Part shown: positions 6,094 to 44,005 of the stretch, one piece after another
Layout: each line of letters opens with the position of its first letter
Position numbering within the stretch: position 1 is the stretch's first letter
Source of the DNA: an uncultured Bacteroidales bacterium
Lineage (GTDB): Bacteria > Bacteroidota > Bacteroidia > Bacteroidales > UBA12077
Reading direction: 5' to 3'
Length of the DNA stretch: 51,965 nucleotides
Assembly: GCA_964399175.1 (NCBI GenBank)
Contig: CAYNPZ010000002.1
Location: 1 to 51,965, forward strand
Position numbers and translations under genes: made by a program
The notes under the pieces: generated by a model
What the model was told of the DNA's origin: nothing
Seen by the model: only the letters and a program-made list of their open reading frames with translations
Database searches by the model: none

Positions 6094-6690
6094 ATGAAAG
6101 AAGAGCAAATCACAATTCGTTATAGTGGACCGGAAGATACGGTATATTCACCACAGATCCATCAAATGTACAAGAAAGAAGCAGCAAACGGAGATATAGG
6201 GCTTGCAGTAAGGTCGGTTCCCTACCTGAATGATGTTATTTCAAAGGGTAAAGGGGTGTTTGCCTTTCATGGCGATCAGCTGGCCGGATTCTGCTATATT
6301 GAAGCCTGGGAACATGAGAAATATCTTGCCAATTCAGGGTTGATTGTTCTTCCTGAATTCAGGGGTAAAGGAGTGGCCAAGAAGATCAAATTCGGTGCTT
6401 TTAAGTTATCCCGAAAGATGTTTCCCCACGCCAAGTTATTCGGGCTAACCACCAATTCGGCTGTTATGCGGATCAATGCGGAATTGGGCTATATACCCGT
6501 CACGTTTTCCAAGCTGACCCAGGATCCCCAGTTCTGGAAAGGATGTGAATCGTGTCCGAACTATGATATACTATTGCGCAAAGGGATGAAAAACTGCCTT
6601 TGTACGGCTATGATCTTTGATCCCGAAATACATACGAGTAAATATGAAGAAAAAGAATTCCGGAAAGAAAAAAATAGTGCTGGCCTTTAG
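6094..6690 (+). CDS. GNAT-family N-acyltransferase of the arginine cluster (candidate glutamate N-acyltransferase)
   Basis: GNAT acyl-CoA binding motif (LIVLPEFRGKGVAKKI). It sits between argR and argG, as in Bacteroidota arg clusters. Confidence 0.7.
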   Translation: MKEEQITIRYSGPEDTVYSPQIHQMYKKEAANGDIGLAVRSVPYLNDVISKGKGVFAFHGDQLAGFCYIEAWEHEKYLANSGLIVLPEFRGKGVAKKIKFGAFKLSRKMFPHAKLFGLTTNSAVMRINAELGYIPVTFSKLTQDPQFWKGCESCPNYDILLRKGMKNCLCTAMIFDPEIHTSKYEEKEFRKEKNSAGL

Positions 6691-15627: not shown

Positions 15628-17055
15628 TTATGAATCCTGCTCAATATCCTGCTCAATGAGGGACCGGAGGCGTTCAATTTGTTTCTGTTTATTAACCTCT
15701 CTAAGATTCAGAGCTGTTTGAGTAAAATACTGATGATGGGATATGAATTTCAGTTGAATTTTATTCCATTGGTTGATGTCGCTGATTTTGTCCTGTTCTC
15801 TCAATTCATTGTATAGTGTATTGGATACAGGGATGAAATCGCTTCTTCCCAGATAATCCAGATCGGCATCACACATGATTTTTTCAAGCAGGTTGGTCGG
15901 TTCCGGGGGCGTTTTGGTAACCAGAATCAGGTCGCATATCCTATCTATCTGTTCCTGGTTATACTTGTATTTGGGCAGATATTCCTTGGCAAGCTGGGCA
16001 CTGTAAAATTCATGATTGTCATAAGCAATAATGTGACCGGCATCATGGAAGAGCGCGGCAGTTTTAAGCAAAAGGATGGACTCATCATCAACTCCTTCTC
16101 CATAGCCGATTAATTCAGCCTGATTAACTACATCAATGGTATGTTTAACATTATGATAGTAAAGGTAGGAGGGAAGTTCTTTTTCCAGTTTGTCTAAAAT
16201 AAATTCCTGTAAATCGGTAAATTGCCTGAGCAAATATTTGTTCAGGAATATCTGATTGGGATACCTGGCCACTTTTTTGTCCTTAGCATAGGCGGGTTTT
16301 ATTTTGTTCAGCCTCAAGATTTCCATTTCACCCTTGTATTTCACCGGTATTTTGCCATTATAGTCACAATTGAAATATTGTTTGATCAACTCATAGGTCA
16401 TTATAGATACATTTATTTCCCCAAATTCACTGGCAGAGGCAATTCTTGTGGCGATGTGCACAGTATCGCCTTTCAATTCATAGGAAAGTTTTTTTCTTCC
16501 GTGAAAGTTAGCGTTGACGGGCCCTGTATGAATTCCGATCCGAAAATCCCAGAATGTTCTTTTGCGGGCATCATATTGCTCTTTTAATCTCATCATATAA
16601 TCCTGCATTTCCAGGGCTGCAAGCACAACATCCACGGGATTGGTGATGTTGTTATCCGGGACTCCCCCGGCACACATAAAAGCATCACCAATGGTCTTGA
16701 TTTTTTCTATTTTATATTTTTTGACGATCTGATTGAATTGAAGAAAGATATTGTCCAGTTCATCCATGATATCGAAGGAAGTGTCCTGCCGGGCTATCTT
16801 TTTTATGCCTTGTAGATCCGCGTACAAGACAGTAGCCATTTCAAATTTCAGGGAGTGCGAATTGGATGGATATTTAATTCCTTTAGGAAGATATTCAGAG
16901 GGAATCTGAGCCATGATTTTTTCCAGGTGTTCCTTTTCTTTATGAATTTCTTTCTTTTCATTGGAAAGGTTTTTAACATGGACGGTCAATTCCTTGTTTT
17001 CCTTTATGAGCTCGGATATCCTGAATAATAGCTGTTCTTCCTTGTGTTTATCCAT
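15628..17055 (-). CDS. Class III nucleotidyl cyclase domain fused to a C-terminal HD phosphohydrolase domain, with N-terminal coiled coil
   Basis: Cyclase-homology motifs: ATVLYADLQGI, KTIGDAFMC, RIGIHTGPV, GDTVHIATRIAS. HD motifs: YYHNVKHTIDV, LFHDAGHI, CDADLDYLG. Confidence 0.75.
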   Translation of the reverse strand: MDKHKEEQLLFRISELIKENKELTVHVKNLSNEKKEIHKEKEHLEKIMAQIPSEYLPKGIKYPSNSHSLKFEMATVLYADLQGIKKIARQDTSFDIMDELDNIFLQFNQIVKKYKIEKIKTIGDAFMCAGGVPDNNITNPVDVVLAALEMQDYMMRLKEQYDARKRTFWDFRIGIHTGPVNANFHGRKKLSYELKGDTVHIATRIASASEFGEINVSIMTYELIKQYFNCDYNGKIPVKYKGEMEILRLNKIKPAYAKDKKVARYPNQIFLNKYLLRQFTDLQEFILDKLEKELPSYLYYHNVKHTIDVVNQAELIGYGEGVDDESILLLKTAALFHDAGHIIAYDNHEFYSAQLAKEYLPKYKYNQEQIDRICDLILVTKTPPEPTNLLEKIMCDADLDYLGRSDFIPVSNTLYNELREQDKISDINQWNKIQLKFISHHQYFTQTALNLREVNKQKQIERLRSLIEQDIEQDS

Positions 17056-19115: not shown

Positions 19116-21053
19116 ATGATTTATTTTACCGGTAAAAGAATAATGGTGGTTATCTTAATACCTATGCTGGCTTTTTATCTTTCCGGTCACGTATATGGGC
19201 AGGAGGAAGATCAATCTTACAGGAAAGAAAGGAAAGATGAATATGTCATTTTTTATTCCGATACTATTTTTTCAAGCGATTCCATAACCTTTAAGATTGA
19301 CAAAGATTCTTATGAATCTTCCGAGTCATTTTTTGATACCCTGAAAAACAAAGCAAAACAAAGCTATGTGTCCGGTAAACTTTACGATTTTTTGATAGTG
19401 AATGAGGATAACCGGATCGGGCAGAAGAGAATTGTAGATAATTACAGCACCCCTTTTGAGCAGTATAGCGGGAAATCAATAAGGCATGTATATATTCGGC
19501 AACTGGATGTTTTCGGTAGTTCAGTAAGCGATACCTTAAACGGACCGGAACAATGGTATAAGGAGGTTGGCAACTGGGTGCATATGCCCACCCATAAGTC
19601 TATTATCAGGGAGAATCTGCTTTTTTCAGCCGGAGATACACTTGATCCCTCGTTGTTAAGAGATAATGGCCGTATTTTAAGAGATCTGCAATATATTAAG
19701 GATGCCCGGCTGGTTGTCCGGCCCGGTGATAAACAGGGCGATTCTGTCGATGTAGTGGTTATCACACAAGATCTATGGACAAAGGGGTTTGATGTCAATC
19801 TGCAAAACATTAACTCAGGAGAAGTTCAGTTGTTCGATAACAATTTTCTGGGATTGGGCCACAAAATACAAACCAATATCCAGTTCGATTATTTTGAAAA
19901 TTCCAATCCCGGTATTGAGACTTATTACAGCCTGAATAATATCCGTGGAAGTTTTATCAACGGCAGGTTATATTATTTGGATGCTTTTGAAACCCGTCGC
20001 TATGGACTGGAGTTCAGGAGAAAATTTTATTCTTACCAAACCCGCCTGGCCGGCGGAGGGAAGGTGTACAAGACAAACACTACCAGAAACATCATACAGC
20101 AAGACACCACTTTCCACCAGGTTGATATGGATTATATCAACCACGATTTTTGGATGGGATACGCCATTCCCCTTAACTGGGGCGAGGATTTTTTTAAAAA
20201 CCGATACAGGTTGATTCTTTCCGGAAGGTACAAAAACGACCGGTTTTTTGACGGCCCGGTCATTACCGAACGTTATAATTACCAGTTTCATGACAACCAG
20301 ATGTTACTGGGTAAATTCAGCTTTTCAAGGGAAAATTATTACAAAAGTTCTTTGATCTATGGATTTGGAAGAACCGAAGATATTCCGGTTGGTGATTTGG
20401 TGAGTTATACTTTTGGTTGGGAGATGGATGAGTTTTTCAGGCGTTTTTATTCCGGTGTGAATTTCCGTCATGGTGAATTTATCGATAATTTCGGTTATCT
20501 TTCCACAGAGCTTGGTGCAGGGGGCTTTTTATACCAGAATCGGGTAGAACAGGGAGCAGTGCATTTCAAAACCAATTATATCAGTAAATTATTCCATACG
20601 GAAAACATTAAGCTCCGACAATTCTTTGGATTGGACTATTCTATAGGCTTTAACCGTTTTCCTGAAGAAACATTGAGACTAGATAAATTCAAAGATATAA
20701 GGGGATTTCCCAATACTGATATTTACGGAAATAAAAAGTTGGTATTTAAATCAGAAACAGTTGGCTTCACCAATATTTACTATTACGGTTTTCGTCTTGC
20801 CTTTTATGGATTCTGTGATGTAGGTTTTCTGGGTCCCTCCGATAATTTTATTTTTCAAAATCCGATCCAAACCGGTTTTGGAATTGGCATGCGGTTTAGA
20901 AACGAAAACTTTGTATTCAATACCTTTCAGATCAGGCTTGGTTATTATCCTTCACTTACCCATGGTAACAGTTTCCTCGTAAACCTTTCCGGTGAGAAGA
21001 CCCTGAAGTCGATGCGGTATACACCCGAACCACCGCAGATCATAGATTTTTGA
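19116..21053 (+). CDS. Omp85/BamA-family outer-membrane protein (POTRA-like domain plus beta-barrel)
   Basis: N-terminal signal-like segment (an alternative start is M at 19143). POTRA-like block IRHVYIRQLDVFG...LLFSAGDTLDPSLLRDNGRILRDLQYIKDARLVV. The C-terminal region is rich in alternating aromatic residues and ends in F (IIDF). Confidence 0.55.
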   Translation: MIYFTGKRIMVVILIPMLAFYLSGHVYGQEEDQSYRKERKDEYVIFYSDTIFSSDSITFKIDKDSYESSESFFDTLKNKAKQSYVSGKLYDFLIVNEDNRIGQKRIVDNYSTPFEQYSGKSIRHVYIRQLDVFGSSVSDTLNGPEQWYKEVGNWVHMPTHKSIIRENLLFSAGDTLDPSLLRDNGRILRDLQYIKDARLVVRPGDKQGDSVDVVVITQDLWTKGFDVNLQNINSGEVQLFDNNFLGLGHKIQTNIQFDYFENSNPGIETYYSLNNIRGSFINGRLYYLDAFETRRYGLEFRRKFYSYQTRLAGGGKVYKTNTTRNIIQQDTTFHQVDMDYINHDFWMGYAIPLNWGEDFFKNRYRLILSGRYKNDRFFDGPVITERYNYQFHDNQMLLGKFSFSRENYYKSSLIYGFGRTEDIPVGDLVSYTFGWEMDEFFRRFYSGVNFRHGEFIDNFGYLSTELGAGGFLYQNRVEQGAVHFKTNYISKLFHTENIKLRQFFGLDYSIGFNRFPEETLRLDKFKDIRGFPNTDIYGNKKLVFKSETVGFTNIYYYGFRLAFYGFCDVGFLGPSDNFIFQNPIQTGFGIGMRFRNENFVFNTFQIRLGYYPSLTHGNSFLVNLSGEKTLKSMRYTPEPPQIIDF

Positions 21054-23700: not shown

Positions 23701-25140
23701 TTATTTGTTCGTCTCTTTTTCTTTCTCCATATATTCTTCTTCCCAAATGTCCTGTGTTAGTTCTTCCAGTTTTTTATCGTATTGAACCAGTTTTTTGTAA
23801 TATTCATTGTCATTAAGCGATTCTTCCGCTTCTTCGCTTTCTCCTTTGGCATGGTTTGGAAGTATATTCCGGCGGAAAGTATCATAATGGTCTCTTATAG
23901 AGCAAGGCATCAGCCAGTTGTTCGGGTTGTGGGGTTGAGCCTGACCATATTTCCGTTGCCATTCCCTGCCGTTTTTCATGAAATCAGAGAACAATGCATC
24001 AACCAATGACTTTCCATTATTGTAGAGATCATAGACGTTATCCACATAATAGGGCACAAATACACACGGCATAATATTTCCGTTCCAGTCGATGTAGAAA
24101 TAGCCTCCCCTTCGGCCGTAAGCTATGCAGCCATTCGTCAGTATACCGCTATTCCAGAAGTCGGCTACACAATAATTTTTCTCTGAGAGGAGATATTCCC
24201 ATTTTCTATATAAATCCACACGTTTTTCAGGAGGAACCATCAGGTCAAAGGCATGGGTACTCCGGCCAATAGGCATAAGCTGGAACTGCCACATGTAGGT
24301 AGCACCCTCCTGATCGAAATAGTAATCATAGAATTCGTCGCTCATGAGTACATCAGTATTTTCACTGGTTGCAGTAACGGAAATACCTATCGGTACCCCT
24401 GCGTTTCTCAGGTTTTCAAAAGCCTGACGTATTTTTTTGTGGGTGCCTTTTCCTCTTCTGGCATCCGTTTCTTTTTCGAAGCCTTCTACCGATACAGCGG
24501 GGGTAACGTTTCCAGCTTTCCCGAGGCGCTCTGCAACTTCCGGTGTGATAAGGGTTCCGTTGGTGTATACCAGGAAAAAGACATCATCGTACTTTTCAAA
24601 AATATCGAGCAGTGTTTTTCCTTCACTCTTATACATGAATGGTTCCCCACCACTTATGGTTACAAAACGGCTGTGAAACTTGTTGCGAACGTCATCTACA
24701 ATTTTGTCAACCATGTGATAGGGTAATTTGTTACCTGTGTGTGGATCGGAGGAAGCATAGCATCCGGTGCAGCTTAAATTGCAGGCCTGAGTTGGGGATA
24801 GCACAATAAAGTTTGGCGGATATTCGCCGTATTGTCCTTTAAATTCCTCAAGTTTGTCACTGTATTTTTGTTTGTTAAGAATTGAATTCTCTACCAGAAC
24901 ATGAACGATACGTTTAAAAACGTTTTTGGAGAAGTAGCCTTTTTCTACATTTCTGACGGCAGATCTCAACATGGAATTCATGAACTGGTACTTTTTTTTC
25001 TGAACCTCGTAGAGATTATTTCCGTCTTTCTCCACAATAGAGTTGTAAAGGTAACTATCGAGCTTTTTTAGCAGGTAATTCCTGCTCATTTTATTATTAA
25101 CAAGCTCCCGTAATACATTAGAAAATATAAAATCTTTCAT
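23701..25140 (-). CDS. Radical SAM enzyme with Cys-rich (SPASM-like) C-terminal region; function unknown
   Basis: CNLSCTGCYAS is a CxxxCxxC motif. GGEPF glycine-rich SAM motif. Downstream cysteines occur at NGCIAYG, IMPCVFVPYY and LMPCSIRD. It has an N-terminal extension of about 100 aa and an acidic C-terminal tail. Confidence 0.75.
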   Translation of the reverse strand: MKDFIFSNVLRELVNNKMSRNYLLKKLDSYLYNSIVEKDGNNLYEVQKKKYQFMNSMLRSAVRNVEKGYFSKNVFKRIVHVLVENSILNKQKYSDKLEEFKGQYGEYPPNFIVLSPTQACNLSCTGCYASSDPHTGNKLPYHMVDKIVDDVRNKFHSRFVTISGGEPFMYKSEGKTLLDIFEKYDDVFFLVYTNGTLITPEVAERLGKAGNVTPAVSVEGFEKETDARRGKGTHKKIRQAFENLRNAGVPIGISVTATSENTDVLMSDEFYDYYFDQEGATYMWQFQLMPIGRSTHAFDLMVPPEKRVDLYRKWEYLLSEKNYCVADFWNSGILTNGCIAYGRRGGYFYIDWNGNIMPCVFVPYYVDNVYDLYNNGKSLVDALFSDFMKNGREWQRKYGQAQPHNPNNWLMPCSIRDHYDTFRRNILPNHAKGESEEAEESLNDNEYYKKLVQYDKKLEELTQDIWEEEYMEKEKETNK

Positions 25141-27899: not shown

Positions 27900-28039
27900 G
27901 TTGGTCTGCTTTTGAAATGACTTTCCACGAATTTATGGAAATTTTCTGTACCTTCAATACACCCACACTGTTTTAACTATCTTGTATGCTTTTTACTGTT
28001 TATTTTATGTCCATTAAAATTTATATATACTAAGGCCAT

Positions 28040-28115
28040 ATTATTTAGAATTTTTTTAAATTAAACTGTTATTTTATTAACAGTGTTATTATATTAACAA
28101 ACTATATTATATTCG
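28040..28115 (+). promoter_or_regulatory. Promoter module of the signalling operon: two tandem TGTTA-N6-TAACA palindromes (Rex-box-like) plus -7-like box TATATTCG
   Basis: TGTTA 28067-71 / TAACA 28078-82 / G / TGTTA 28084-88 / TAACA 28095-99. TATATTCG lies at 28108-28115. The whole block has about 80 percent identity to 31958-32032 with identical spacing to the -7 box. Confidence 0.6.
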
Positions 28116-28162
28116 CAGATATGAATGATGAGAAATTAACAAAAATTCGCAAAGACAAGGCT

Positions 28163-28504
28163 ATGAAAGTATCCGAAATTGCCGGGCTGATAAACGCCAA
28201 TATTGTATGTAACTGCAAGGATGACCGGGAGGTCTCCAAAGCGTTTTCATCGGATCTGATGAGCGATGTACTTACGCTGGAAACGGATAATACATTGCTT
28301 ATCACCGGGCTGGCCAATGTCCAGGCCATCCGGACGGCAGAAATGTCGGATATCAACTGCATTGTATTTGCAAGAAACAAGAAGGTGAATGAGGATATGA
28401 AGCAGGTAGCCTTAGAAAATGATATTTTGCTGCTTGAGACGTCCTTTTCGGTTTTTAAAACCTCTGGAATCCTTTATCAGGAAGGTATCCAACCCATATT
28501 TTGA
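28163..28504 (+). CDS. DRTGG-domain protein (paralogue 1)
   Basis: About 113 aa from MKVSEIAGL. It aligns with the second DRTGG protein (MNVSELVNDL) and shares the motif SDLMSDV / SDLLSDV. The track start 28121 would lie on top of the predicted transcription start. Confidence 0.7.
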   Translation: MKVSEIAGLINANIVCNCKDDREVSKAFSSDLMSDVLTLETDNTLLITGLANVQAIRTAEMSDINCIVFARNKKVNEDMKQVALENDILLLETSFSVFKTSGILYQEGIQPIF

Positions 28505-28507
28505 CCG

Positions 28508-28921
28508 ATGGAGTTTAAATATGAAATAACAGGGGGTGATTTTTCCAGGGCAGGCTTTGCTTCCAGTCACCTGAAGAAGATTCTGAAGCAGATCAATATT
28601 GAACCCAGGCTGATCAAAAAGATCGTCATCGCCTTATATGAGGCAGAAGTCAATATTGTGGCTCATGCTTTTGAAGGAAAGATCAAGGTCAGCATAGAAC
28701 CGGACCGGATCATTATGGATGTTTCTGATAGAGGTTCGGGCATTGAAGATATTGACAAGGCTATGGAAGACGGATATTCCACTGCTTCGGATGAAGTCAG
28801 GGAGATGGGATTTGGAGCCGGGATGGGTCTTTCCAATATCAAAAACAACTCAGATGAGTTGGAGATCAACAGTACCGTGAATGAGGGTACTGAACTGAAA
28901 ATTATTAAAAGACTGAATTGA
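28508..28921 (+). CDS. Small GHKL ATPase / anti-sigma-factor-type serine kinase-like protein (RsbW/SpoIIAB-like)
   Basis: N-box EAEVNIVAHA, G1 box DRGSGI, G2 box GFGAGMGL. It is 137 aa with no sensor or DHp domain. Confidence 0.7.
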   Translation: MEFKYEITGGDFSRAGFASSHLKKILKQINIEPRLIKKIVIALYEAEVNIVAHAFEGKIKVSIEPDRIIMDVSDRGSGIEDIDKAMEDGYSTASDEVREMGFGAGMGLSNIKNNSDELEINSTVNEGTELKIIKRLN

Positions 28922-28923
28922 TT

Positions 28924-30288
28924 ATGAATAAGCAAACTTTTCATCATGCATTGAAAATACAAAGGGAAATCTGTATCGGTTGCGCTCATTGTATGAATGT
29001 GTGTCCTACCGGTGCGTTGCGGGTACGTGAAGGCAAGGCTGTTTTGCTCGAAGAAAGATGTGTAGATTGTGGAGAATGTTACCGGGCTTGTCCTGTTAAT
29101 GCCATTTCGGTGGAACAGGACGATTTTAACCAGGTTTATGATTTTAATTACAGTGTGTTGCTGGTGCCTGAAGTTCTGTTCGGGCAGTTTCCTGAAGATG
29201 TTGACAAGGATTTGATCAATGAAACCTTACGGGAGATGGGTTTTAATGAGGTGGTGGAAGTGGAACATGCTGCCGAGATATTGAAAAACAGCACCAAAGA
29301 GTACAGCCGCAATACCAGTCAGGAGCGACCCCTTATATCTGCCTTTTGTCCTGCCATTGTGAGGCTTATACAGGTCAGATTCCCTTCACTTGTGGATCAT
29401 ATCATCCTGCAAAAACCCCCGCTGAACATTACGGCACTCTACTATAAAAAGAAACTTATGGATCAGGGGGTTGATCCAGAGGATATTGGAATTTTCTATG
29501 TCACCCAGTGCGCCGCTAAGATTGCAGCTGTTAAAAGCCCTGTGGGTGATACCAATGTTAATATTGATGGTGTAATCAATCTGGATTTTGTTTATAATAA
29601 GATTTATTCCATACTGAAAGCTCGTAAAAACTCCAGGGAAACCACTTCGGAACCTTCAGAGGAAGCGCTGTCCCCGGAAGTCGTTAGATGGAGCCTCACC
29701 CACGGAGAATCGGATAACTGTGAAGGCAGATGCCTTGCAATAGATGGGATACAGAACGTGATTGAGATTCTCGAAAAGGTGGAGGATGGAGAAATGGATG
29801 ATGTGGATTTCCTGGAGCTCCGGGCTTGCGACGAAAGCTGTGCCGGCGGTATCCTTAATCCGGCAAACCGTTTCCTGACTGTTGAAAGGTTGAGGAATAA
29901 GGCTAAGAAACTTGAACAGGCAAGGATATCCGGACAAAAATCCTCCTCAGGGATCATTCATTATCAGAAGTATCTATTGAAGAATATTGAATTACAGACA
30001 GTAATGCCACGCTCCATAATGAAGCTGGATGAGGATATGACTCGCGCGCTTAAGAAGATGCGCAGGATTAAAGATCTGATGAATACACTGCCCGGGGTGG
30101 ACTGCGGGGTCTGTGGAGCTCCCAGTTGTTCTGCCCTTGCTGAAGATATCGTGAATCAGAATGCCAGCCTTAAGGATTGTATTTTTATACAGCGAAAGTA
30201 TGAACACAATAAACTTCAGCGGCCCGAAGATTCTTATGAGATCATGAAAAATATATGGGGTGAGAATAAATTGAGTAACAATTATTAA
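28924..30288 (+). CDS. HydS-like putative sensory [FeFe]-hydrogenase homologue (2x[4Fe-4S] ferredoxin N-terminus, degenerate H-cluster domain, C-terminal Cys4 Fe-S domain)
   Basis: Ferredoxin motifs CIGCAHCMNVCP and CVDCGECYRACP. H-cluster motif analogues SAFCPAI, TQCAAK and ACDESCAGGILNP. C-terminal CGVCGAPSC...C. Confidence 0.75.
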   Translation: MNKQTFHHALKIQREICIGCAHCMNVCPTGALRVREGKAVLLEERCVDCGECYRACPVNAISVEQDDFNQVYDFNYSVLLVPEVLFGQFPEDVDKDLINETLREMGFNEVVEVEHAAEILKNSTKEYSRNTSQERPLISAFCPAIVRLIQVRFPSLVDHIILQKPPLNITALYYKKKLMDQGVDPEDIGIFYVTQCAAKIAAVKSPVGDTNVNIDGVINLDFVYNKIYSILKARKNSRETTSEPSEEALSPEVVRWSLTHGESDNCEGRCLAIDGIQNVIEILEKVEDGEMDDVDFLELRACDESCAGGILNPANRFLTVERLRNKAKKLEQARISGQKSSSGIIHYQKYLLKNIELQTVMPRSIMKLDEDMTRALKKMRRIKDLMNTLPGVDCGVCGAPSCSALAEDIVNQNASLKDCIFIQRKYEHNKLQRPEDSYEIMKNIWGENKLSNNY

Positions 30289-30299
30289 AATTTTGTAAT

Positions 30300-30653
30300 A
30301 TGAACGTTTCAGAATTAGTAAATGATTTAGGGTTAGTTATATATAGTGGTAAGAAGGCATTGGAACGTGCCATAAAAGGAGGGTACGCCTCTGATCTGTT
30401 GAGTGATGTGATGGGGAATGCGAGAGAAGGACAGGTTTGGATTACTTTACAAACCCATAAGAATATGGCGGCCATCGCATCACTCAAAGATCTGGCAGCT
30501 GTGATACTGGTTAAAGGCAACCAGCCCGATGAGGATACAGCCAGCCACAGTGATGAGGAAGGTGTTCCGATACTGGGAACTGAACTCAATGCCTTTGAAA
30601 TTACAGGCAAAGTATATGAAAAGCTTAAAGCTCATGAAATTGTTCAAGGCTGA
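30300..30653 (+). CDS. DRTGG-domain protein (paralogue 2)
   Basis: 117 aa and alignable to 28163-28504 (GYASDLLSDVMG, AAVILVKG, VPILGTEL.AFE). Confidence 0.7.
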   Translation: MNVSELVNDLGLVIYSGKKALERAIKGGYASDLLSDVMGNAREGQVWITLQTHKNMAAIASLKDLAAVILVKGNQPDEDTASHSDEEGVPILGTELNAFEITGKVYEKLKAHEIVQG

Positions 30654-31374
30654 TCTTCACGTTCATACTGTGTTATCTCCCTGCGGAGATCTGGAAATGA
30701 GTCCGGAACAGATCATCGCCGGTGCCAGAGATCAGGGTCTGGACATTCTGGGTATTACCGATCATAATTCCACCCGACAGTGTGAAGTAATGAAACGGTT
30801 AGGAGCCAGAGAAGGCATTTATATCCTTTGCGGTGCGGAGGTAAATACCAGGGAAGAAGTACACTGTCTTGCTTTTTTTGAACAAACCGAACAGCTGAAA
30901 GCTTTTGAGCAAATTATGGAAGATCATTTGCCGGATATAAAAAACGATCCTGAAAAATTCGGCTATCAGGCAGTGGTCGATGAAGATGAGTTTATACTGG
31001 ATCAACCGGAGAAACTGCTCATAAACGCTATTGAAATGGGTATTGAAGAAGTGGAAAAAAAGGTTCATGAAATGGACGGGATTTTTATTCCTGCCCACAT
31101 CGACCGCATCAGAAACGGAATCATTGGGCAACTGGGTTTCATACCCGGGAATTTGAAGTGTGATGCACTTGAACTGTCTCCCTACGCTGATTATGAAAGT
31201 CTTCTGAGAGAATTTAATTATTTGGAAAAGTATGAATTTGTTCAGGGCTCAGATGCTCATTACCCCAAAGATATTGGCAGGGTACATACCATGTTTTATC
31301 TTGAGAATGCTGGATTTGCAGAGATTAAAATGGCCCTTGCGGGATTGAACGGAAGAAAAACTCAAATTAAATGA
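30634..31374 (+). CDS. PHP-domain metal-dependent phosphoesterase
   Basis: MKLFKADLHVHTVLSPCGD (HxH motif), GITDHNS, PAHIDR, GSDAH. The start could be 30634 or 30616. It overlaps the preceding gene, and ATGA overlaps the next gene. Confidence 0.75.
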   Translation: MKLFKADLHVHTVLSPCGDLEMSPEQIIAGARDQGLDILGITDHNSTRQCEVMKRLGAREGIYILCGAEVNTREEVHCLAFFEQTEQLKAFEQIMEDHLPDIKNDPEKFGYQAVVDEDEFILDQPEKLLINAIEMGIEEVEKKVHEMDGIFIPAHIDRIRNGIIGQLGFIPGNLKCDALELSPYADYESLLREFNYLEKYEFVQGSDAHYPKDIGRVHTMFYLENAGFAEIKMALAGLNGRKTQIK

Positions 31375-31940
31375 AAACACTATCTTATCATTTATTGGAT
31401 ATAGTGCAGAATTCGCTTAACGCAGGAGCAGATCTGGTGGAAATCAACATCCGGGAGGATGATAGAAAAGGCCTTTTTAGCCTTATTATTACCGACAACG
31501 GTAAGGGGATGGATCATAATACGTTACAAAAAGCCATCGATCCCTATTTTTCGACCCGGAAAGAAAGAAAGATTGGTCTGGGGCTTTCTCTTCTGAAGCA
31601 AAATACAGAACGAACCGGAGGCAGATTTTCAATAGATTCTGAGCCTGGAAAGGGAACCCGGGTAACGGCCGAATTTGTAAAAACCCATATCGATTGTCCT
31701 GCAATAGGTGACCTGGCAGGCACTGTTCATCAGATTATTGTATTCAATTCCAAAAAGGATTTTGTTTACCACCATTATCGGGATGGAGGGGGTTTTGAGA
31801 TTAATTCCCGCCAGATAAAAGAAGTGCTTGACCAGTTGCCACTCCATCATCCGGAGATAAGCAGATACATCGAAGAAATGATCCGGGAGAATCTGAAAGG
31901 GTTGAGGGAAGAGGCAGACGCCATCGACCAATATTCCTGA
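31371..31940 (+). CDS. Stand-alone GHKL (HATPase_c) ATPase with a C-terminal extension of about 80 aa
   Basis: N-box LLDIVQNSLNAGA, G1 box DNGKGM, G2 box GLGLSLL, plus GKGTRV. No DHp, His-phosphotransfer or sensor domain is visible. Confidence 0.7.
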   Translation: MKTLSYHLLDIVQNSLNAGADLVEINIREDDRKGLFSLIITDNGKGMDHNTLQKAIDPYFSTRKERKIGLGLSLLKQNTERTGGRFSIDSEPGKGTRVTAEFVKTHIDCPAIGDLAGTVHQIIVFNSKKDFVYHHYRDGGGFEINSRQIKEVLDQLPLHHPEISRYIEEMIRENLKGLREEADAIDQYS

Positions 31941-31957
31941 ATTATAGACTGGGGATT

Positions 31958-32032
31958 ATTATTTAGAATGATTTTAAATTAATTGTTAATTTAATAACAG
32001 TGTTAAAAAAATAACAATAAATTATATATTTG
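31958..32032 (+). promoter_or_regulatory. Promoter module of the hydrogenase operon: two tandem TGTTA-N6-TAACA palindromes (Rex-box-like) plus -7 box TATATTTG
   Basis: TGTTA 31984-88 / TAACA 31995-99 / G / TGTTA 32001-05 / TAACA 32012-16. TATATTTG at 32025-32032 follows after an 8 nt gap, exactly as in the 28040-28115 copy. The ATG lies 55 nt downstream. Confidence 0.65.
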
Positions 32033-32086
32033 TATCGTCATGTAGGTTGAAGAACAAACCATATAATTTAAAACATACTGAAAACT

Positions 32087-32485
32087 ATGGCAAAAATTAA
32101 ATCTCTTGAAGACTTAAAAAAGAAAAAAGAGAATCTGCAGAAAAAGGTAGATCTAAGAGAGCGCGCCGATCATCCTGAAAATTATGTTCAGATTAAGGTT
32201 GGCATGGCAACAAGCGGAATTGCTTCAGGTGCAAAGGAGGTTATGGATTATCTTATGGATGAATTGGAAAAACGCAATATTGAAGCCGTTGTCACTCAAG
32301 CGGGTGATATGGGATACAGCTATGCCGAACCCACGATTGAAGTAAAGAAACCGGGAGAAGAAGCGGTGGTTTTTGGTTGGGTGGATACTAAAAAGGCGGA
32401 TGAAATAATTGAAAGATACATCAAGCGAGGAGAACTGGTTGACGGTATCCTTCCACAAAATTACAGAACAATTGATGAGGAATAA
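32087..32485 (+). CDS. Thioredoxin-like [2Fe-2S]-ferredoxin-fold protein lacking all cysteines (paralogue of the HydB N-terminal domain)
   Basis: It aligns to the HydB N-terminus. VGMATSGIASGA corresponds to VCGGTGCRASAS, and AGDMGYSYAEP corresponds to TGCFGFCEKGP. The 132 aa protein has no Cys at all. Confidence 0.65.
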   Translation: MAKIKSLEDLKKKKENLQKKVDLRERADHPENYVQIKVGMATSGIASGAKEVMDYLMDELEKRNIEAVVTQAGDMGYSYAEPTIEVKKPGEEAVVFGWVDTKKADEIIERYIKRGELVDGILPQNYRTIDEE

Positions 32486-32506
32486 TTTAAAACAGGAGGA
32501 TTGATC

Positions 32507-34300
32507 ATGGCAAAAAATAAGATGCACTTGCTTGTTTGTGGGGGTACAGGATGTCGTGCCTCAGCGAGTGATTCCATTGCAGAAAGTCTGAAAGAGAAGA
32601 TTGAGGAGAACAATCTCCAGGATGAGGTACAGGTTATCTTTACCGGATGTTTCGGCTTTTGCGAGAAAGGACCTATCGTAAAGGTATTACCCGACAATAC
32701 ATTTTATACACAGGTAAAACCTGAGGACAGCGACGAGATCGTTAAGGAACACCTCATCAAGGGAAGACAGGTGGAGCGGTTGCTCTATAAAGATCCTGAG
32801 AGGGGAGAGACAATCCATGATTCCAAGCACATGGATTTCTATAAAAAACAAATCAGAATAGCCCTCAGGAATTGTGGTTTTATTGATCCGGAGAATATTG
32901 ATGAATATATTGCCCGGGATGGATATTTTGCCCTGGGGACGGTATTGAAGGAGATGAGCCAGGAAGATGTCATCAATGAAGTTAAGGAATCCGGATTAAG
33001 AGGTCGCGGCGGTGGAGGTTTTCCCGCCGGGTTGAAATGGGAGTTCGCCTATAAAAATGAGTCCGATCAGAAATATGTGGTTTGTAATGCAGATGAAGGC
33101 GATCCCGGTGCATTTATGGACCGTTCCATACTTGAGGGCGATCCTCACGCTGTGCTTGAAGCCATGGCCATTTGCGGATACGCCACCGGCGCTGACAAGG
33201 GCTTGATTTACATCAGAGCAGAATATCCTCTGGCAATCAAGAGACTTAAAATTGCCATAGATCAGGCCAGAGAATATGGATTGCTGGGTGAAAAGATATT
33301 TGATACAGACTTCAATTTTGATATACAATTGCGATATGGTGCAGGAGCCTTTGTATGCGGTGAGGAAACAGCGCTGATCCATTCTATGGAAGGAGACAGG
33401 GGAGAGCCAACTTTTAAACCCCCTTTTCCCGCCGAATCCGGTTACCTTGGTAAACCCACAAACGTAAATAATGTGGAGACCTACGCCAGTGTTCCTGTAA
33501 TCATTAACAAGGGAGCCGGTTGGTTTAATAAGATAGGTACCGAGAAATCAAAAGGTACCAAGGTTTTTGCACTGGCCGGAAAAGTGAACAATGTAGGGCT
33601 TATTGAAGTACCCATGGGCACTACCCTCAAGGAAGTGGTTTTTGAAATTGGTGGGGGAATTAAAGATGGAAAGAAATTTAAGGCTGTGCAAACCGGCGGA
33701 CCTTCCGGCGGGTGCCTTACAGAAGAACATCTCGATACACCCATTGACTTTGATAACCTTCTCGCTGTAGGTTCCATGATGGGTTCCGGGGGTATGATTG
33801 TTATGGATGAAGATGATTGCATGGTATCGGTTGCCAAGTTCTTCCTGGAGTTTACCGTGGAAGAATCCTGTGGAAAATGTTCTCCATGCCGGATAGGGAA
33901 CAAGCGGATGCATGAGCTGCTTGAACGCATTACTCAGGGGAAAGCAGAGCGAAAGGAGCTTCAGCGACTGAAAAATATGTGCCATGTGATTGCTGATACT
34001 TCTTTATGTGGATTGGGACAGACCGCACCCAGCCCGGTACTCTCAACCCTGCACAATTTCTGGGAAGAGTATGTGGCACACGTGGAAGATCAAAGGTGCC
34101 CCGCAGGTTCGTGTAAAGAGCTCATGCGTTACGAAATCATGCCCGAAAACTGTGTTGGTTGTACCGCTTGTGCCAGGAAATGCCCCGTCGGAGCAATAAC
34201 AGGCGAAAGAAAACAGGTACATGAGATCGACCAGGATAAATGTATAAAATGCGGTGCTTGTCTGGAAGCTTGTAAATTTGATGCGGTAATAGTAAAATAA
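32507..34300 (+). CDS. hydB: NuoF-like flavoprotein subunit HydB of electron-bifurcating [FeFe]-hydrogenase (N-terminal [2Fe-2S], FMN/NADH site, [4Fe-4S], C-terminal 2x[4Fe-4S])
   Basis: CGGTGC...CFGFC. GLRGRGGGGFPAGLKW FMN motif. ESCGKCSPCR. CVGCTACARKCP and CIKCGACLEAC. AGGAGG lies 7 nt before the ATG at 32507. Confidence 0.9.
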   Translation: MAKNKMHLLVCGGTGCRASASDSIAESLKEKIEENNLQDEVQVIFTGCFGFCEKGPIVKVLPDNTFYTQVKPEDSDEIVKEHLIKGRQVERLLYKDPERGETIHDSKHMDFYKKQIRIALRNCGFIDPENIDEYIARDGYFALGTVLKEMSQEDVINEVKESGLRGRGGGGFPAGLKWEFAYKNESDQKYVVCNADEGDPGAFMDRSILEGDPHAVLEAMAICGYATGADKGLIYIRAEYPLAIKRLKIAIDQAREYGLLGEKIFDTDFNFDIQLRYGAGAFVCGEETALIHSMEGDRGEPTFKPPFPAESGYLGKPTNVNNVETYASVPVIINKGAGWFNKIGTEKSKGTKVFALAGKVNNVGLIEVPMGTTLKEVVFEIGGGIKDGKKFKAVQTGGPSGGCLTEEHLDTPIDFDNLLAVGSMMGSGGMIVMDEDDCMVSVAKFFLEFTVEESCGKCSPCRIGNKRMHELLERITQGKAERKELQRLKNMCHVIADTSLCGLGQTAPSPVLSTLHNFWEEYVAHVEDQRCPAGSCKELMRYEIMPENCVGCTACARKCPVGAITGERKQVHEIDQDKCIKCGACLEACKFDAVIVK

Positions 34301-34308
34301 AGGATATA

Positions 34309-36090
34309 ATGATGGAAAAAGTTCAGGTAACCATAGATGATAAAAAGGTAGAAGTTCCCAAAGGAACTACCATATATAAAGCGGCCAAAGAGGTTGGGAT
34401 TGATATTCCGGTATTGTGCTATATGAATCTGGAAGATATCGGAGTAGAAAATAAACCCGGAGGCTGCAGGGTTTGTAGCGTAGAAGTAGAGGGCAGGAAA
34501 AACCTTGCTCCCGCCTGCGCTACAGAAGTGTATGACGGCATGGTAGTGAAGACTCATACCATGCGGGTGATCAATGCCAGAAGAACTGTTGTGGAATTTA
34601 TTCTTTCCGATCACCCTAAAGATTGTCTGACCTGCAAAAAGTCAGGAAACTGTGAACTGCAGGATCTGGCAATCAGGTTGGGGATTCGTGAGATACCCGG
34701 ACAGGAGTATGCAGAGATGTCCACCTACAAAACCGACTATTCACCCTCCATTGTAAGGGAGCTGGACAAATGCATCATGTGCAGAAGATGTGAGAAGATG
34801 TGTAATGAATTCCAGACTGTCGGTGCCTTATATGCATTTAACAGAGGATTTGATGCAGCTGTAGCGCCTGCATTTGAAATGGACCTGCAGTATTCACCTT
34901 GTACCTATTGCGGACAGTGTGTTGCAGTTTGTCCTACCGGCGCTTTGACAGAGGTTGATCATTCTCGTGATCTGATAGATGCCATTTCCGATCCAAACAC
35001 CACAGTGGTTGCACAGACAGCCCCTGCTGTACGTGCAGCTTTGGGTGAGGAGTTCGGGTATGAACCAGGAACACTGGTTACTGGTAAGATGGTTAGCGCC
35101 CTTCGCAGGCTTGGTTTCGACTATGTGTTTGATACCGACTTTGCCGCCGACCTGACCATCGTGGAAGAAGGAACGGAATTGCTCGACCGGCTGTCAAAGT
35201 ACCTGGACGGCGATCAGGATGTGGAACTGCCTATGCTGACTTCCTGCTGCCCGGCATGGGTTCGGTTTATCGAACATCATTTTCCTGAAATGAAAGATAT
35301 TCCTTCTTCGGCACGTTCGCCCCAACAGATGTTCGGATCTGTGGCAAAAACTTATTTTGCCGATAAGATCAATCAGAAAAGGGAAAATATGGTGGTTGTT
35401 TCCATTATGCCCTGCCTGGCCAAAAAATATGAAAGCCAAAGGGACGAGTTTAGGGTGGATGATAACCCGGATGTAGATTTTTCTGTTACCACAAGGGAGT
35501 TGGCCCATCTGATCAAAGAGACAAATTTCCATCTGAAAGATATGGAAGAAGAAGATTTTGATAAACCTATGGGAGAATCCACTGGTGCTGGTGTGATGTT
35601 TGGAACAACCGGCGGTGTGATTGAGGCAGCTACCCGAACAGCATATGATATGTATACAGGCAATTCGCTGAATGAAAGCATAGAATTTGAGCAGTTGAGA
35701 GGGTTTGAAGCCATCCGTAAAGCCACTGTAGATTTCAACGGTACAGAAATCAATATCGGTATAGCCCATGGATTAGGTAATGCAAGAAAGCTTCTTGAGG
35801 AGATTAAGGAAGGGAAATCGGAATTCCACGCCATTGAAATCATGGCCTGCCCTGGTGGATGTATCGGCGGTGGAGGTCAGCCTTTACATCACAACGACAC
35901 AAGTATTCTAAAGGCCAGACAAAAAGCCATATATCAGGAAGACAAGAACAAGCCGATCAGGAAGTCTCATGAGAATCCAGAGATCAAGAAGCTATATGAG
36001 GAGTATCTTGGAAAACCCATGGGAGAAAAAGCTCATAAGTTGTTACATACCCGGTATTTCGATGTAAGCCGGAAAATTGAAATCGAATGA
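34309..36090 (+). CDS. hydA: [FeFe]-hydrogenase catalytic subunit HydA (NuoG-like [2Fe-2S], His-ligated and 2x[4Fe-4S] domains, H-cluster domain)
   Basis: Canonical H-cluster motifs TSCCPAWV, MPCLAKKYE and EIMACPGGCIGGGGQP. N-terminal CRVCSVEV, HPKDCLTCKKSGNCELQ, CIMCRRCEKMC and CTYCGQCVAVCP. Confidence 0.93.
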   Translation: MMEKVQVTIDDKKVEVPKGTTIYKAAKEVGIDIPVLCYMNLEDIGVENKPGGCRVCSVEVEGRKNLAPACATEVYDGMVVKTHTMRVINARRTVVEFILSDHPKDCLTCKKSGNCELQDLAIRLGIREIPGQEYAEMSTYKTDYSPSIVRELDKCIMCRRCEKMCNEFQTVGALYAFNRGFDAAVAPAFEMDLQYSPCTYCGQCVAVCPTGALTEVDHSRDLIDAISDPNTTVVAQTAPAVRAALGEEFGYEPGTLVTGKMVSALRRLGFDYVFDTDFAADLTIVEEGTELLDRLSKYLDGDQDVELPMLTSCCPAWVRFIEHHFPEMKDIPSSARSPQQMFGSVAKTYFADKINQKRENMVVVSIMPCLAKKYESQRDEFRVDDNPDVDFSVTTRELAHLIKETNFHLKDMEEEDFDKPMGESTGAGVMFGTTGGVIEAATRTAYDMYTGNSLNESIEFEQLRGFEAIRKATVDFNGTEINIGIAHGLGNARKLLEEIKEGKSEFHAIEIMACPGGCIGGGGQPLHHNDTSILKARQKAIYQEDKNKPIRKSHENPEIKKLYEEYLGKPMGEKAHKLLHTRYFDVSRKIEIE

Positions 36091-36121
36091 TTGATTCATT
36101 AAATATCAGGAGGAAATACTC

Positions 36122-36616
36122 ATGTCCAGTATAAAAGTAAAGCTTAAAGAAAAGGATCTGAAAGAGATTAAAGAGATCTGCAGGGCTCATGGCAATGAGC
36201 CCGGCGAACTGATTAACGTCCTGCAGCAGATCCAGGAGCATTTTGGTTATTTGCCTGCTGAAGTGCAGGAGGCAGTGGCCAGTGAATTAGGCTTGCCTGT
36301 GGCGAAGGTCTATGGTGTGGTTACTTTCTACTCATTCTTTACCATGATTCCTCAGGGAGAGTATCCCATATCCGTTTGCACCGGTACCGCTTGTTATGTA
36401 AGAGGAGCAGATAACGTGCTGCAGGAATTCAAAAGGCAGTTGGGTTTGGAAGTGGGAGAAACAACTGGTGACGGCAAATTTAGTTTGAACTGCCTGCGTT
36501 GTGTGGGTGCTTGTGGACTGGCACCGGTTGTGCTGGTAGGAGATAAGACCTACGGAAGGGTAGCACCGGATGGTGTGAGAGATATAATTGCAGAATATAA
36601 GAAGAACGAAGAATAG
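36122..36616 (+). CDS. hydC: NuoE-like [2Fe-2S] subunit HydC
   Basis: CTGTACYVRGA...CLRCVGACGLAPV is the NuoE-type Cys4 pattern. AGGAGG at 36108-36113 lies 8 nt before the ATG. Confidence 0.9.
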   Translation: MSSIKVKLKEKDLKEIKEICRAHGNEPGELINVLQQIQEHFGYLPAEVQEAVASELGLPVAKVYGVVTFYSFFTMIPQGEYPISVCTGTACYVRGADNVLQEFKRQLGLEVGETTGDGKFSLNCLRCVGACGLAPVVLVGDKTYGRVAPDGVRDIIAEYKKNEE

Positions 36617-43435: not shown

Positions 43436-44005
43436 TCATCCAAAATATATATCGCTTATAATGCTTTTTAAAATATCCCCCTCAAAGTAGAATATGAACC
43501 GCAAGGTTCCGTCTGAATTGGCTAACTGTACAATGTCGCCGAAAGGCTTGCTGATCCCGAAAACGGACCGGAAAGTTTTCCTGGTCATACCCGGACGGAT
43601 GCAAGAATCCAATACCAGTTCAGAAGAGGTTAGGTGAAGATATATCATAAAATTTTTTTTCCGGCTGCTGTAGAATGTTATGGTGTCCCGGCTACCTGAG
43701 AAGCGATAAATGGTATCTATGACCGTTGTGTCGTGAATGTTGCGAAATGGTTCCTTTTTTAAGGGTACCAACTCTGAATGATTCTCCTGTAGAGATTCAA
43801 TGGTAAAAGATTCAACGGCCCTGTTGGTGAAGCTGTCAGTGATAAAAGTAGGAATGCCTTTTCTGGACATTTCAGCATAGCGGGTTGCTATTTTCATTGT
43901 GTCACACGCCTTGCTTATGCTTTCGGTGGTGTTTTTCTTTGTGTGACAACCCCAGGCTGCAATCATTAAAAGAAGTAAGATGTGTGGAATCAGGTTTTTT
44001 TTCAT
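43436..44005 (-). CDS. Hypothetical lipoprotein
   Basis: Signal peptide plus lipobox (LLLLMIAAWGC). No recognisable family. Confidence 0.5.
   Translation of the reverse strand: MKKNLIPHILLLLMIAAWGCHTKKNTTESISKACDTMKIATRYAEMSRKGIPTFITDSFTNRAVESFTIESLQENHSELVPLKKEPFRNIHDTTVIDTIYRFSGSRDTITFYSSRKKNFMIYLHLTSSELVLDSCIRPGMTRKTFRSVFGISKPFGDIVQLANSDGTLRFIFYFEGDILKSIISDIYFG

Follow-up and report, generated by a model that had tools for sequence, protein, structure and literature searches.

With which proteins does a group D [FeFe] hydrogenase work? Enzymes of this group are listed as functionally undefined, and their role as sensors is only putative. TamHydS of Thermoanaerobacter mathranii, the only characterised member, turns over H2 at low rates with a high H2 affinity (Land et al. 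2020), a combination that fits sensing. The latest study states that its signalling partners are unknown and that identifying interaction partners is critical (Schumann et al. 2026). The question is raised by a 52-kb stretch of Bacteroidales DNA (the window, meaning the whole stretch that was analysed), in which ten co-directional genes on the + strand, at 28163-36616, combine a putative sensory hydrogenase with the genes of a second hydrogenase. Six packed open reading frames (ORFs) at 28163-31940, here g1 to g6, encode a DRTGG protein, a SpoIIAB-like GHKL protein, a HydS-like hydrogenase, a second DRTGG protein, a PHP protein and a histidine kinase (HK)-type GHKL protein. An earlier sequence-only reading of this DNA had held the signalling route of putative sensory [FeFe] hydrogenases to be unresolved, as the 2026 paper also says of the partners, and had proposed for the six genes a circuit with GHKL as kinase, DRTGG as phospho-acceptor in place of STAS and PHP as phosphatase in place of PP2C. 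The six genes are:

28163-28504, + strand: g1 (DRTGG-A), 113 amino acids (aa), a predicted stand-alone DRTGG fold; an alternative ATG at 28121 would give 127 aa
28508-28921, + strand: g2 (GHKL-A), 137 aa, SpoIIAB/RsbW-like protein of the ATPase or Ser-kinase type, with N, G1 and G2 boxes intact
28924-30288, + strand: g3 (HydS), group D (M2e) [FeFe] hydrogenase with two N-terminal [4Fe-4S] motifs, an H-domain, a C-terminal Cx2Cx4Cx16C motif and no PAS domain; TTG 28918 is an alternative start
30300-30653, + strand: g4 (DRTGG-B), 117 aa, paralogue of g1 with the motifs SDLLSDVMGNA and WITLQTH
30634-31374, + strand: g5 (PHP), 246 aa, PHP-family metal-dependent phosphoesterase
31371-31940, + strand: g6 (GHKL-B), 189 aa, HK-type CA domain with a C-terminal extension of ~85 aa

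A group D hydrogenase and its conserved neighbours

The protein encoded by g3 is 456 aa long from TTG 28918 or 454 aa from ATG 28924. In Pfam it matched two Fer4 domains, Fe_hyd_lg_C (87 bits) and the FeS domain PF04060 (46 bits), and no PAS domain. In an alignment of g3 with 17 diverse relatives and the window's own HydA, all four H-cluster ligands (C142, C196, C302 and C306) are kept and invariant, as is the C-terminal C394-x2-C397-x4-C402-x16-C419 motif, and the Fer4 cysteines C17/20/23/27 and C46/49/52/56 are invariant or nearly so. The proton-relay Cys (C299 of CpI) is replaced, with SAFCPA in place of TSCCP, CpI Met353 is Thr (VTQCAAK versus IMPCLAK in the window HydA) and CpI Met497 is Arg, in an ELRAC variant. 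The defining features of M2e/group D were set out by Land et al. 2020. TamHydS likewise lacks C299, has Ser/Thr at M353, carries the C-terminal Cx2Cx4Cx16C motif without a PAS domain, and is encoded upstream of a trimeric group A hydrogenase, beside a histidine-kinase-like ATPase. Identity of g3 to the published TamHydS coding sequence is ~33% over the full length, compared with 24%, over the H-domain only, for the group A HydA of the window; module-bearing homologues from Clostridia are 46-54% identical to TamHydS. Motifs and pairwise identity thus mark g3 as a genuine member of group D/M2e, in the family of TamHydS. The sequence-only reading had called it degenerate, a term that does not fit an enzyme with all four H-cluster cysteines and every group D hallmark. 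The two systems differ in host (Firmicutes for TamHydS, Bacteroidales for g3); the DRTGG pair and PHP are not discussed in the TamHydS literature, and the AraC gene is absent at the window locus. An exhaustive search at E<1e-30 placed the g3 family in 354 clusters at 50% identity. The exact window HydS, in its TTG-start version, is not on record. The Bacteroidota context pointed to earlier is right, the host being a member of the Bacteroidales, but the setting is not new, since Parabacteroides goldsteinii already figures among the 70 group D enzymes of a published list.

The neighbours of g3 are conserved with it. A scan of one genome per species gave ~590 relatives of g3, of which the best 80 loci were examined. 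These are Bacteroidota-type except for a few metagenome-assembled genomes filed under other taxa, and include Anaerophaga thermohalophila, Ancylomarina euxinus, Odoribacter laneus and Butyricimonas. Synteny was counted over 83 loci, namely these 80 and three from Clostridia, with L084-L086 left out. In 78 of 81 loci g3 is immediately preceded by g1 and g2, and in 67 of 77 it is immediately followed by g4-g5; 63 of 74 loci have g6, and in 51 of 62 hydB and hydA occur within 9 kb. The exact gene order of the window recurs in 46 of the 62 related loci with enough flank. This arrangement is far beyond chance. The synteny with hydABC that the sequence-only reading had expected in related genomes was thus observed, and the module also occurs in Clostridia.

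The survey divides the locus into three parts: a universal triad of DRTGG-A, GHKL-A and HydS, a frequent pair of DRTGG-B and PHP, and GHKL-B. In several Bacteroidales only the triad is found, g1-g2-g3 lying among unrelated genes (peptidases, HisRS, an Rnf subunit), which shows it to be an autonomous core, and some loci have g1-g6 without a hydrogenase downstream. Caldicoprobacter oshimai and a metagenomic contig show the order DRTGG-GHKL-HydS-DRTGG-PHP, followed by hydC, GHKL, a gene of ~125 aa, hydB and hydA, and Acetivibrio saccincola has the five-gene module alone. HydS homologues just 27-28% identical to g3 keep their DRTGG and GHKL neighbours. A very divergent DRTGG-GHKL-HydS triad (L086, 463-10323) lies beside NuoE/NuoF, a molybdopterin formate-dehydrogenase-like subunit and NfnAB-like genes, not beside hydABC. 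In Koleobacter, with rex upstream, a CBS-pair::GHKL fusion substitutes for g1/g2. Downstream of hydA in Koleobacter methoxysyntrophicus (L082, 17010-19380), one gene joins a HydS-like H-domain plus Fe-S motif to PAS and to a sigma-54 activator domain, which wires a sensory-type hydrogenase straight to a transcription factor.

Natural fusions provide a second line of comparative evidence. Among the 150 best representatives of the g3 family, searched with Pfam and by pairwise comparison, 11 have a neighbour fused to HydS. Eight are HydS::DRTGG fusions of the g4 type, 34-50% identical to the window g4, with SDLLSDVMA and LWITLQTH motifs placed straight after the C-terminal Fe-S motif. In P0185 and P0206 (DRTGG::HydS) a g1-type DRTGG domain, 35% identical to g1, precedes HydS, and in P0168 (GHKL::HydS) the preceding domain is a g2-type GHKL, 43% identical to g2. 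One more long relative, P0239, brings the number to twelve but ends in a C-terminal extension of another kind. Domains in the fusions are arranged as the genes are, and at one locus (L088) PHP comes straight after the HydS::DRTGG gene. The possibility that relatives of 530-560 aa were PAS-bearing group C enzymes was rejected, most being HydS::DRTGG fusions. Taken together, synteny and fusions argue strongly, on comparative grounds, for g1, g2 and g4 as proteins that bind HydS, and we consider such contacts very likely. The conserved order across phyla and the g1-, g2- and g4-type fusions also bear out the earlier view of the six genes as a real signalling-type unit.

In the fusions, DRTGG-B sits where group C enzymes carry PAS. 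The group C (M2f) enzymes TmHydS, Ruminococcus albus HydS and Thermoanaerobacterium HfsB resemble g3 in lacking the proton-relay Cys, in having a C-terminal [4Fe-4S] motif and in lying beside bifurcating hydABC, kinase and phosphatase genes. They differ in their fused PAS domain and in the accompanying PP2C phosphatases or histidine kinases, whereas the window locus has a separate DRTGG protein (fused in some lineages) at the PAS place and a PHP phosphoesterase. A search of the literature on DRTGG, PHP or partner-switching with hydrogenases found no description of this module. The partner set of DRTGG-A, SpoIIAB-like GHKL, DRTGG-B and PHP, with its fusions, is therefore not described for this known hydrogenase group in the literature searched. 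The gene cluster itself will not surprise a specialist; its value is that the open partner question becomes a short list of testable proteins and residues: four concrete partner candidates for group D, a specific Ser residue, and natural fusions as ready-made complexes.

Further arrangements were seen at related loci. An extra DRTGG gene heads the NuoEF/formate-dehydrogenase-like cluster of L086. Both DRTGG genes stand in tandem upstream of GHKL and HydS, preceded by an unassigned gene of ~180 aa, in certain metagenomic lineages, at L084 (807-1521) and L089 (925-1632). A second hydC-hydB-hydA-type cluster (31-49% identical) lies directly upstream of the sensor module in many Bacteroidales (L002, L009, L010, L017, L021, L022, L024, L048 and others), at locus coordinates of ~4.5-7.5 kb and often preceded by TGTTA-N6-TAACA; the window has no such second cluster.

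The DRTGG, GHKL and PHP proteins

The two DRTGG proteins scored below the Pfam gathering score of 25.2 for DRTGG (PF07085), g1 with 21 bits and g4 with 23.9 bits; many orthologues of both carry a precomputed PF07085 call. A fold was modelled for g1 only. The AlphaFold2 model, built with 39 sequences (pLDDT, the predicted local distance difference test, 91.6), matched in Foldseek the DRTGG protein AF1212 (2IOJ; TM score 0.86, E 6e-7), the DRTGG domain of a Clostridium perfringens CBS-pyrophosphatase (3L2B; TM score 0.77), and the HprK/P N-terminal domain and Pta (TM scores in the range 0.6-0.7), with no STAS-fold match. On this model, g1 has a DRTGG/HprK-N-like fold and not a STAS fold, and DRTGG "in place of STAS" stands as a functional analogy only. 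A PDB sequence search with g4 alone found nothing. In a profile search of the PDB, the top matches, designed 'Pizza' repeat proteins, were discarded as spurious, and true DRTGG structures were matched weakly; the PDB sequence matches start at about profile position 41, so the D-L-x-S loop is uncovered.

Only D31, L32, S34, T48 and A59 (g1 numbering) are invariant across both paralogues and both phyla. The motif S-D-L-(M/L)-S-D-V, which the sequence-only reading had seen in the two paralogues, is real, its D, L and second S being invariant in both proteins and both phyla, and T48 corresponds to the Thr in the sequence after which the DRTGG family is called. Strand 2 of the g1 model is followed by a loop or short helix that holds D-L-x-S; model confidence is lowest in this part, which is probably mobile. 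In the model the conserved g1-type motifs D-L-x-S, T-G and R-x-K would sit just after strands 2, 3 and 4, their spatial clustering being deduced from secondary structure; this placement fits a ligand or phosphoryl pocket as well as a phosphorylation site. DRTGG domains have oligomerisation and regulatory roles in CBS-pyrophosphatases and Pta. From these and from AF1212 and HprK/P, which share its fold, g1 differs in being stand-alone, in its family-specific invariant D-L-x-S loop and in its genetic tie to a hydrogenase.

The first GHKL protein, g2, matched HATPase_c_2 above cut-off (44.9 bits). Its best NCBIfam match was SpoIIAB (TIGR01925), at 67.7 bits against an equivalog cut-off of 135, and its PDB sequence matches were anti-sigma F factor (1e-5). 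The N, G1 and G2 ATP-binding boxes are conserved among its orthologues. The second, g6, matched HATPase_c (59.8 bits) and, in the PDB, HK CA domains, and has kept the ATP-binding boxes. It has no DHp domain or phospho-His, and neither HisKA nor Response_reg was matched in the module (Pfam, NCBIfam). The clostridial g6 lies between hydC and a hydD-like gene, in the order hydC-GHKL-hydD-hydB-hydA, so that in Clostridia it behaves as part of the hydrogenase structural operon. This operon is known from Thermoanaerobacter and Caldicellulosiruptor. The Caldicellulosiruptor literature mentions a five-gene Hyd system and a Rex-regulated 'histidine kinase'.

The phosphoesterase g5 matched PHP at 35.8 bits (cut-off 26.4) and PHP_C at 22.8 bits (cut-off 21.3), and its metal-ligand motifs HxH, DH, E...H, H and DxH are conserved in 70 orthologues. 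Its NCBIfam matches were TrlF (61.5 bits), CehA, pAp-phosphatase, RNase Rnm and cyclic-phosphate dihydrolase, and its PDB match was EndoQ (2e-7). These nearest relatives are nucleases or nucleotide phosphatases of the PHP family and not protein phosphatases. The formula PHP "in place of PP2C" is likewise a functional analogy only. Profile searches thus upheld the earlier domain calls for g2, g3, g5 and g6, including two GHKL ATPases, one of SpoIIAB/RsbW size, and one PHP protein; the DRTGG calls on g1 and g4 fell below the Pfam gathering score and are backed by the orthologue calls and the g1 model. The lack of an output domain was also borne out, Pfam finding no receiver, HTH, sigma or STAS domain in the six module genes.

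A possible phosphorylation switch and its rivals

A circuit resembling partner-switching by phosphorylation is plausible by analogy. The DRTGG gene lies 3 nt ahead of the SpoIIAB-like gene, as spoIIAA precedes spoIIAB and rsbV precedes rsbW. In SpoIIAA-SpoIIAB-SpoIIE and RsbV-RsbW-RsbU/RsbS-RsbT, too, a gene for a small alpha/beta protein comes immediately ahead of the SpoIIAB-like GHKL gene. The second small paralogue, second GHKL and single phosphoesterase of the module mirror the two-tier logic of the sigma B cascade, which makes the partner-switch idea reasonable. These systems differ in using STAS, PP2C and a sigma factor; the module has the DRTGG fold, PHP and no sigma factor. Neither a STAS antagonist nor PP2C was found in the module, and no co-encoded sequestered output in the window or in 86 related loci. 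The DHp domain with phospho-His and the receiver of two-component systems were not found either, g6 being a CA domain only. HoxBC/HoxJ/HoxA of Cupriavidus necator also has a low-activity hydrogenase as H2 sensor, in physical contact with a kinase-type protein that controls hydrogenase genes. HoxBC is, however, of the [NiFe] class, and HoxJ is a PAS histidine kinase with a response regulator, whereas the module lacks DHp/His and a receiver. Kinase and phosphatase genes accompany group C sensory hydrogenases too. Such genes beside group C enzymes were reportedly described by Zheng et al. in 2014.

In the explanation that we favour, the locus is the Bacteroidales form of a widespread and conserved arrangement centred on a putative H2-sensing hydrogenase of group D (M2e). 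On the comparative evidence, HydS very probably forms a complex with DRTGG-A, the SpoIIAB-like GHKL-A and DRTGG-B. DRTGG-B very probably docks beside the C-terminal [4Fe-4S] domain of HydS, at the PAS position of group C, and PHP (g5) is its usual companion. The state of the H-cluster, with H2 present or absent, would alter the conformation of the complex and hence the activity of the GHKL kinase, which would phosphorylate the invariant Ser of D-L-x-S in one or both DRTGG proteins; PHP would remove the phosphate. Ser34 of g1 and Ser35 of g4 are the candidate acceptors suggested by conservation. The phosphorylation state of the free DRTGG protein would then set the output in the manner of a partner switch. 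Its target would be encoded outside the module, either HydABC with the operon-embedded GHKL-B or a regulator in trans. Separately, the sensor genes and, in this lineage, the hydrogenase genes would be transcribed from two copies of one promoter region with tandem Rex-type operators (described below). Taken as a whole, this HydS-DRTGG-GHKL-PHP phospho-switch with Rex-type control falls, in our judgement, slightly short of an even chance. The role of DRTGG as phospho-acceptor we propose only tentatively. Bolder still, and rather doubtful, is the idea that stand-alone DRTGG proteins are a new class of switch protein, phosphorylated by a HydS-bound SpoIIAB-like kinase and dephosphorylated by PHP, in a two-tier cascade that would turn H2 sensing into post-translational control of HydABC (via GHKL-B and the HydD-like protein) or of Rex.

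Several points weigh against this explanation. The window has no rex gene, and palindromes like these are also targets of factors of the CRP/FNR type. To our knowledge, DRTGG domains have no precedent as phospho-acceptors. By model comparison g1 is not STAS-like, g2 scored under the SpoIIAB equivalog cut-off, and g5 is nearest to EndoQ, TrlF, pAp phosphatase and RNase Rnm, not to the CpsB/YwqE protein phosphatases. The triad-only loci have a kinase without a dedicated phosphatase. No output partner was found in the window or near the module in related loci. The sensor role of group D is itself only putative, and H2 does not reduce the C-terminal cluster of TamHydS (Schumann et al. 2026), which argues against a simple redox relay via the domain adjoining DRTGG-B.

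The main rival is a nucleotide- or ligand-based route that signals without protein phosphorylation, the DRTGG proteins being small-molecule-binding or adaptor proteins, as are CBS-DRTGG inserts. PHP, under the control of DRTGG-B docked on HydS, would hydrolyse a nucleotide such as pAp, a dinucleotide (cyclic or linear) or a polyphosphate nucleotide, and the GHKL proteins would switch conformation with the help of ATP. The signal would leave as a change in the cellular level of that nucleotide, which would account for the absence of an output domain from the locus and from anywhere near the module. The family matches of g5 point this way, the best (TrlF at 61.5 bits, pAp phosphatase, RNase Rnm, cyclic-phosphate dihydrolase and EndoQ) being nucleotide- or nucleic-acid-directed PHP enzymes, and the g1-type motifs after strands 2-4 occupy the usual ligand site of doubly wound alpha/beta folds, although only the five residues listed above are also invariant in the g4 type. 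The CBS-pair::GHKL protein that replaces g1/g2 in Koleobacter is a further point in its favour, as CBS domains bind adenine nucleotides. Yet no nucleotide cyclase or synthase is conserved in the module, nucleotide binding by DRTGG itself has no demonstration in the literature, the closest relatives of g2 are bona fide Ser kinases, and the kinase-and-phosphatase theme recurs in group C loci. We regard this route as rather unlikely.

The SpoIIAB and RsbW matches of g2 would also suit a true anti-sigma or anti-regulator protein, one that sequesters a factor encoded elsewhere (e.g. Rex) and frees it when DRTGG-A binds, as with SpoIIAB and sigma F. A small antagonist-like gene followed by GHKL is the canonical order, and rex adjoins the module in three loci. 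This role is improbable: in 86 loci from different phyla the module has neither a sigma factor nor any other regulator as a conserved neighbour, we know of no SigF/SigB-type sigma factors in Bacteroidota, and the GHKL::HydS fusion ties g2 to the sensor, not to a DNA-binding partner. Alternatively, HydS might not signal at all. It would then be a slow catalytic hydrogenase or redox valve, consistent with the low rates of H2 turnover by TamHydS and the only putative sensor role. The small proteins would serve HydS/HydABC in assembly, in repair or as chaperones, with GHKL as an ATPase of the Hsp90/MutL kind, as the place of g6 inside the structural operon of Clostridia might suggest. Such a function is hard to reconcile with triad-only loci far from hydrogenase structural genes, with GHKL proteins of the kinase type and not the chaperone type, and with the Koleobacter HydS-like::PAS::sigma-54 activator, in which this type of H-domain is used as a sensor input. 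The high H2 affinity of TamHydS, together with those low rates, also fits sensing, and we think a role outside signalling highly improbable.

Anaerobes of gut, rumen and sediment widely carry group D enzymes, encoded beside the electron-bifurcating hydrogenases that determine how much H2 fermentation yields, and HydS lies next to the hydrogenase that it probably controls. If the DRTGG switch operates, it would be the missing signal route of the group D sensory hydrogenases. A route based on phosphorylation would bring a new fold (DRTGG) and a new phosphatase family (PHP) into partner-switching signalling. Such a route would also account for the way in which anaerobes adjust their H2 production to the partial pressure of H2, a question that bears on syntrophy, rumen methane and gut H2 cycling.

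Rex-type boxes, hydBAC and the rest of the window

The six module genes are co-directional and tightly packed, as had been read from the sequence. The junctions are +3 nt for g1/g2, -4 nt (TTG start 28918) or +2 nt (ATG 28924) for g2/g3, where the g3 homologues are 454 aa, +11 nt for g3/g4, -20 nt for g4/g5 and -4 nt for g5/g6. A 146-nt spacer 3' of g6 precedes g7, hydB, hydA and hydC. Two similar regulatory regions flank the module:

28020-28125, + strand: regulatory copy 1, upstream of g1, with palindromes at 28067-28082 and 28084-28099, then a Bacteroidota -7-like element
31940-32045, + strand: regulatory copy 2, in the g6-g7 spacer, with boxes at 31984-31999 and 32001-32016, then TATATTTG (-7-like)

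The two copies are AT-rich and alike, with 75% identity over a 59-nt ungapped repeat and a mean column identity of 85% over 109 columns of a gapped alignment. Each has two tandem TGTTA-N6-TAACA palindromes at a spacing of 17 nt, with T preferred at position -1. The window contains four exact matches to this palindrome, where 0.03 would be expected, and all four lie in the two copies. Related loci, 1.49 Mb in total, yielded 71 exact matches, 51 of them within 300 nt upstream of g1; most of the others precede a second hydCBA-type cluster, and one precedes the module in the Firmicute A. saccincola. Upstream of g1 an exact box is found in 33 of 80 related loci, a count that rises to 40 of 80 when one mismatch is allowed, against a background of 0.03 per equivalent stretch. 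The internal (g6-g7) copy was otherwise seen only in L001 and L027.

The box core is that of the TTGTTAAnnnnTTAACAA Rex sites of Thermoanaerobacterium. A Rex operator is an 18-20 bp palindrome, TTGTGAA/TTGTTAA-N4-TTCACAA/TTAACAA, in the promoter region, a pattern to which all four window boxes conform. Rex controls hyd operons in Caldicellulosiruptor, and a rex homologue immediately precedes g1 in L012; L035 and L082 also have one close to the module. As in the Rex regulon of Clostridia and Thermoanaerobacterales, where 18-bp palindromes of this type stand upstream of hyd operons and rex is sometimes adjacent, the boxes precede hydrogenase genes; the window locus differs in its tandem pairs 17 nt apart and in the duplication of the whole region inside the operon. 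We know of no description of Rex control of Bacteroidales hyd operons. The boxes are fairly likely to be Rex operators, with Rex as the protein that we infer to bind them, and the locus would, with similar likelihood, be under a Rex-type repressor that senses NADH/NAD+. The duplication of the operator-promoter region in the window, L001 and L027 suggests that the locus has two co-regulated promoters and that g1-g6 and g7-hydBAC are probably separate but co-regulated units. The duplicated region was not mentioned in the sequence-only reading and supplies a control point at the DNA level. An Rfam scan of the locus found no RNA element, and scans for sigma-70 promoters and terminators did no better than on shuffled sequence.

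The genes downstream of the second copy are:

32087-32485, + strand: g7 (HydD-like), 132 aa, thioredoxin-like-ferredoxin fold, without the three Cys of most orthologues
32501-34300, + strand: HydB, NuoF-like flavoprotein subunit (Complex1_51K, NADH_4Fe-4S) with an N-terminal 2Fe-2S thioredoxin-like domain and a C-terminal [4Fe-4S] motif pair
34309-36090, + strand: HydA, group A [FeFe] hydrogenase of the trimeric NADH-linked type, with canonical TSCCP, MPC and MACPGGC motifs
36122-36616, + strand: HydC, NuoE-like [2Fe-2S] subunit (2Fe-2S_thioredx, 171.7 bits)

HydA matched NF040763 at 884 bits (cut-off 765). Judged by sequence, hydBAC encodes a trimeric NADH-linked (bifurcating-type) HydABC, made up of a NuoG-like M3 HydA, a NuoF-like HydB and a NuoE-like HydC. 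The module had been placed directly upstream of HydABC; in fact g7 intervenes before hydB. No Pfam match was found for g7, and its PDB match was the NfnB N-terminal domain (2.7e-9). Three Cys are kept in 54 of 59 g7 orthologues, whereas the window g7 has S, D and S instead. The same loss is seen in L001, L003, L011 and L013, suggesting that one clade probably has a cluster-less version of g7.

The maturase genes hydE, hydF and hydG were not found in the window, as noted before. Its single radical-SAM gene, at 23701-25140 on the - strand, was rejected as HydE or HydG, being of the SPASM type; its best matches are mycofactocin- and NirJ-like maturases, all far under the cut-offs. No DNA-binding protein adjoins the operon, and the sole regulator seen in the window is ArgR, ~22 kb upstream. 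At the thresholds applied, neither Pfam nor NCBIfam matched several sizeable ORFs, at 19116-21053, 44128-45543, 6094-6690 and 43436-44005. Otherwise the window is an ordinary Bacteroidota chromosome, with a protease tailed for the type IX secretion system, arginine biosynthesis and ArgR, glutamine synthetase III and DNA ligase. At 15628-17055 on the - strand, ~11 kb upstream of the module, a gene encodes a 475-aa protein with both an HD domain and a catalytic domain of the adenylate/guanylate cyclase type, a possible nucleotide-signalling enzyme.

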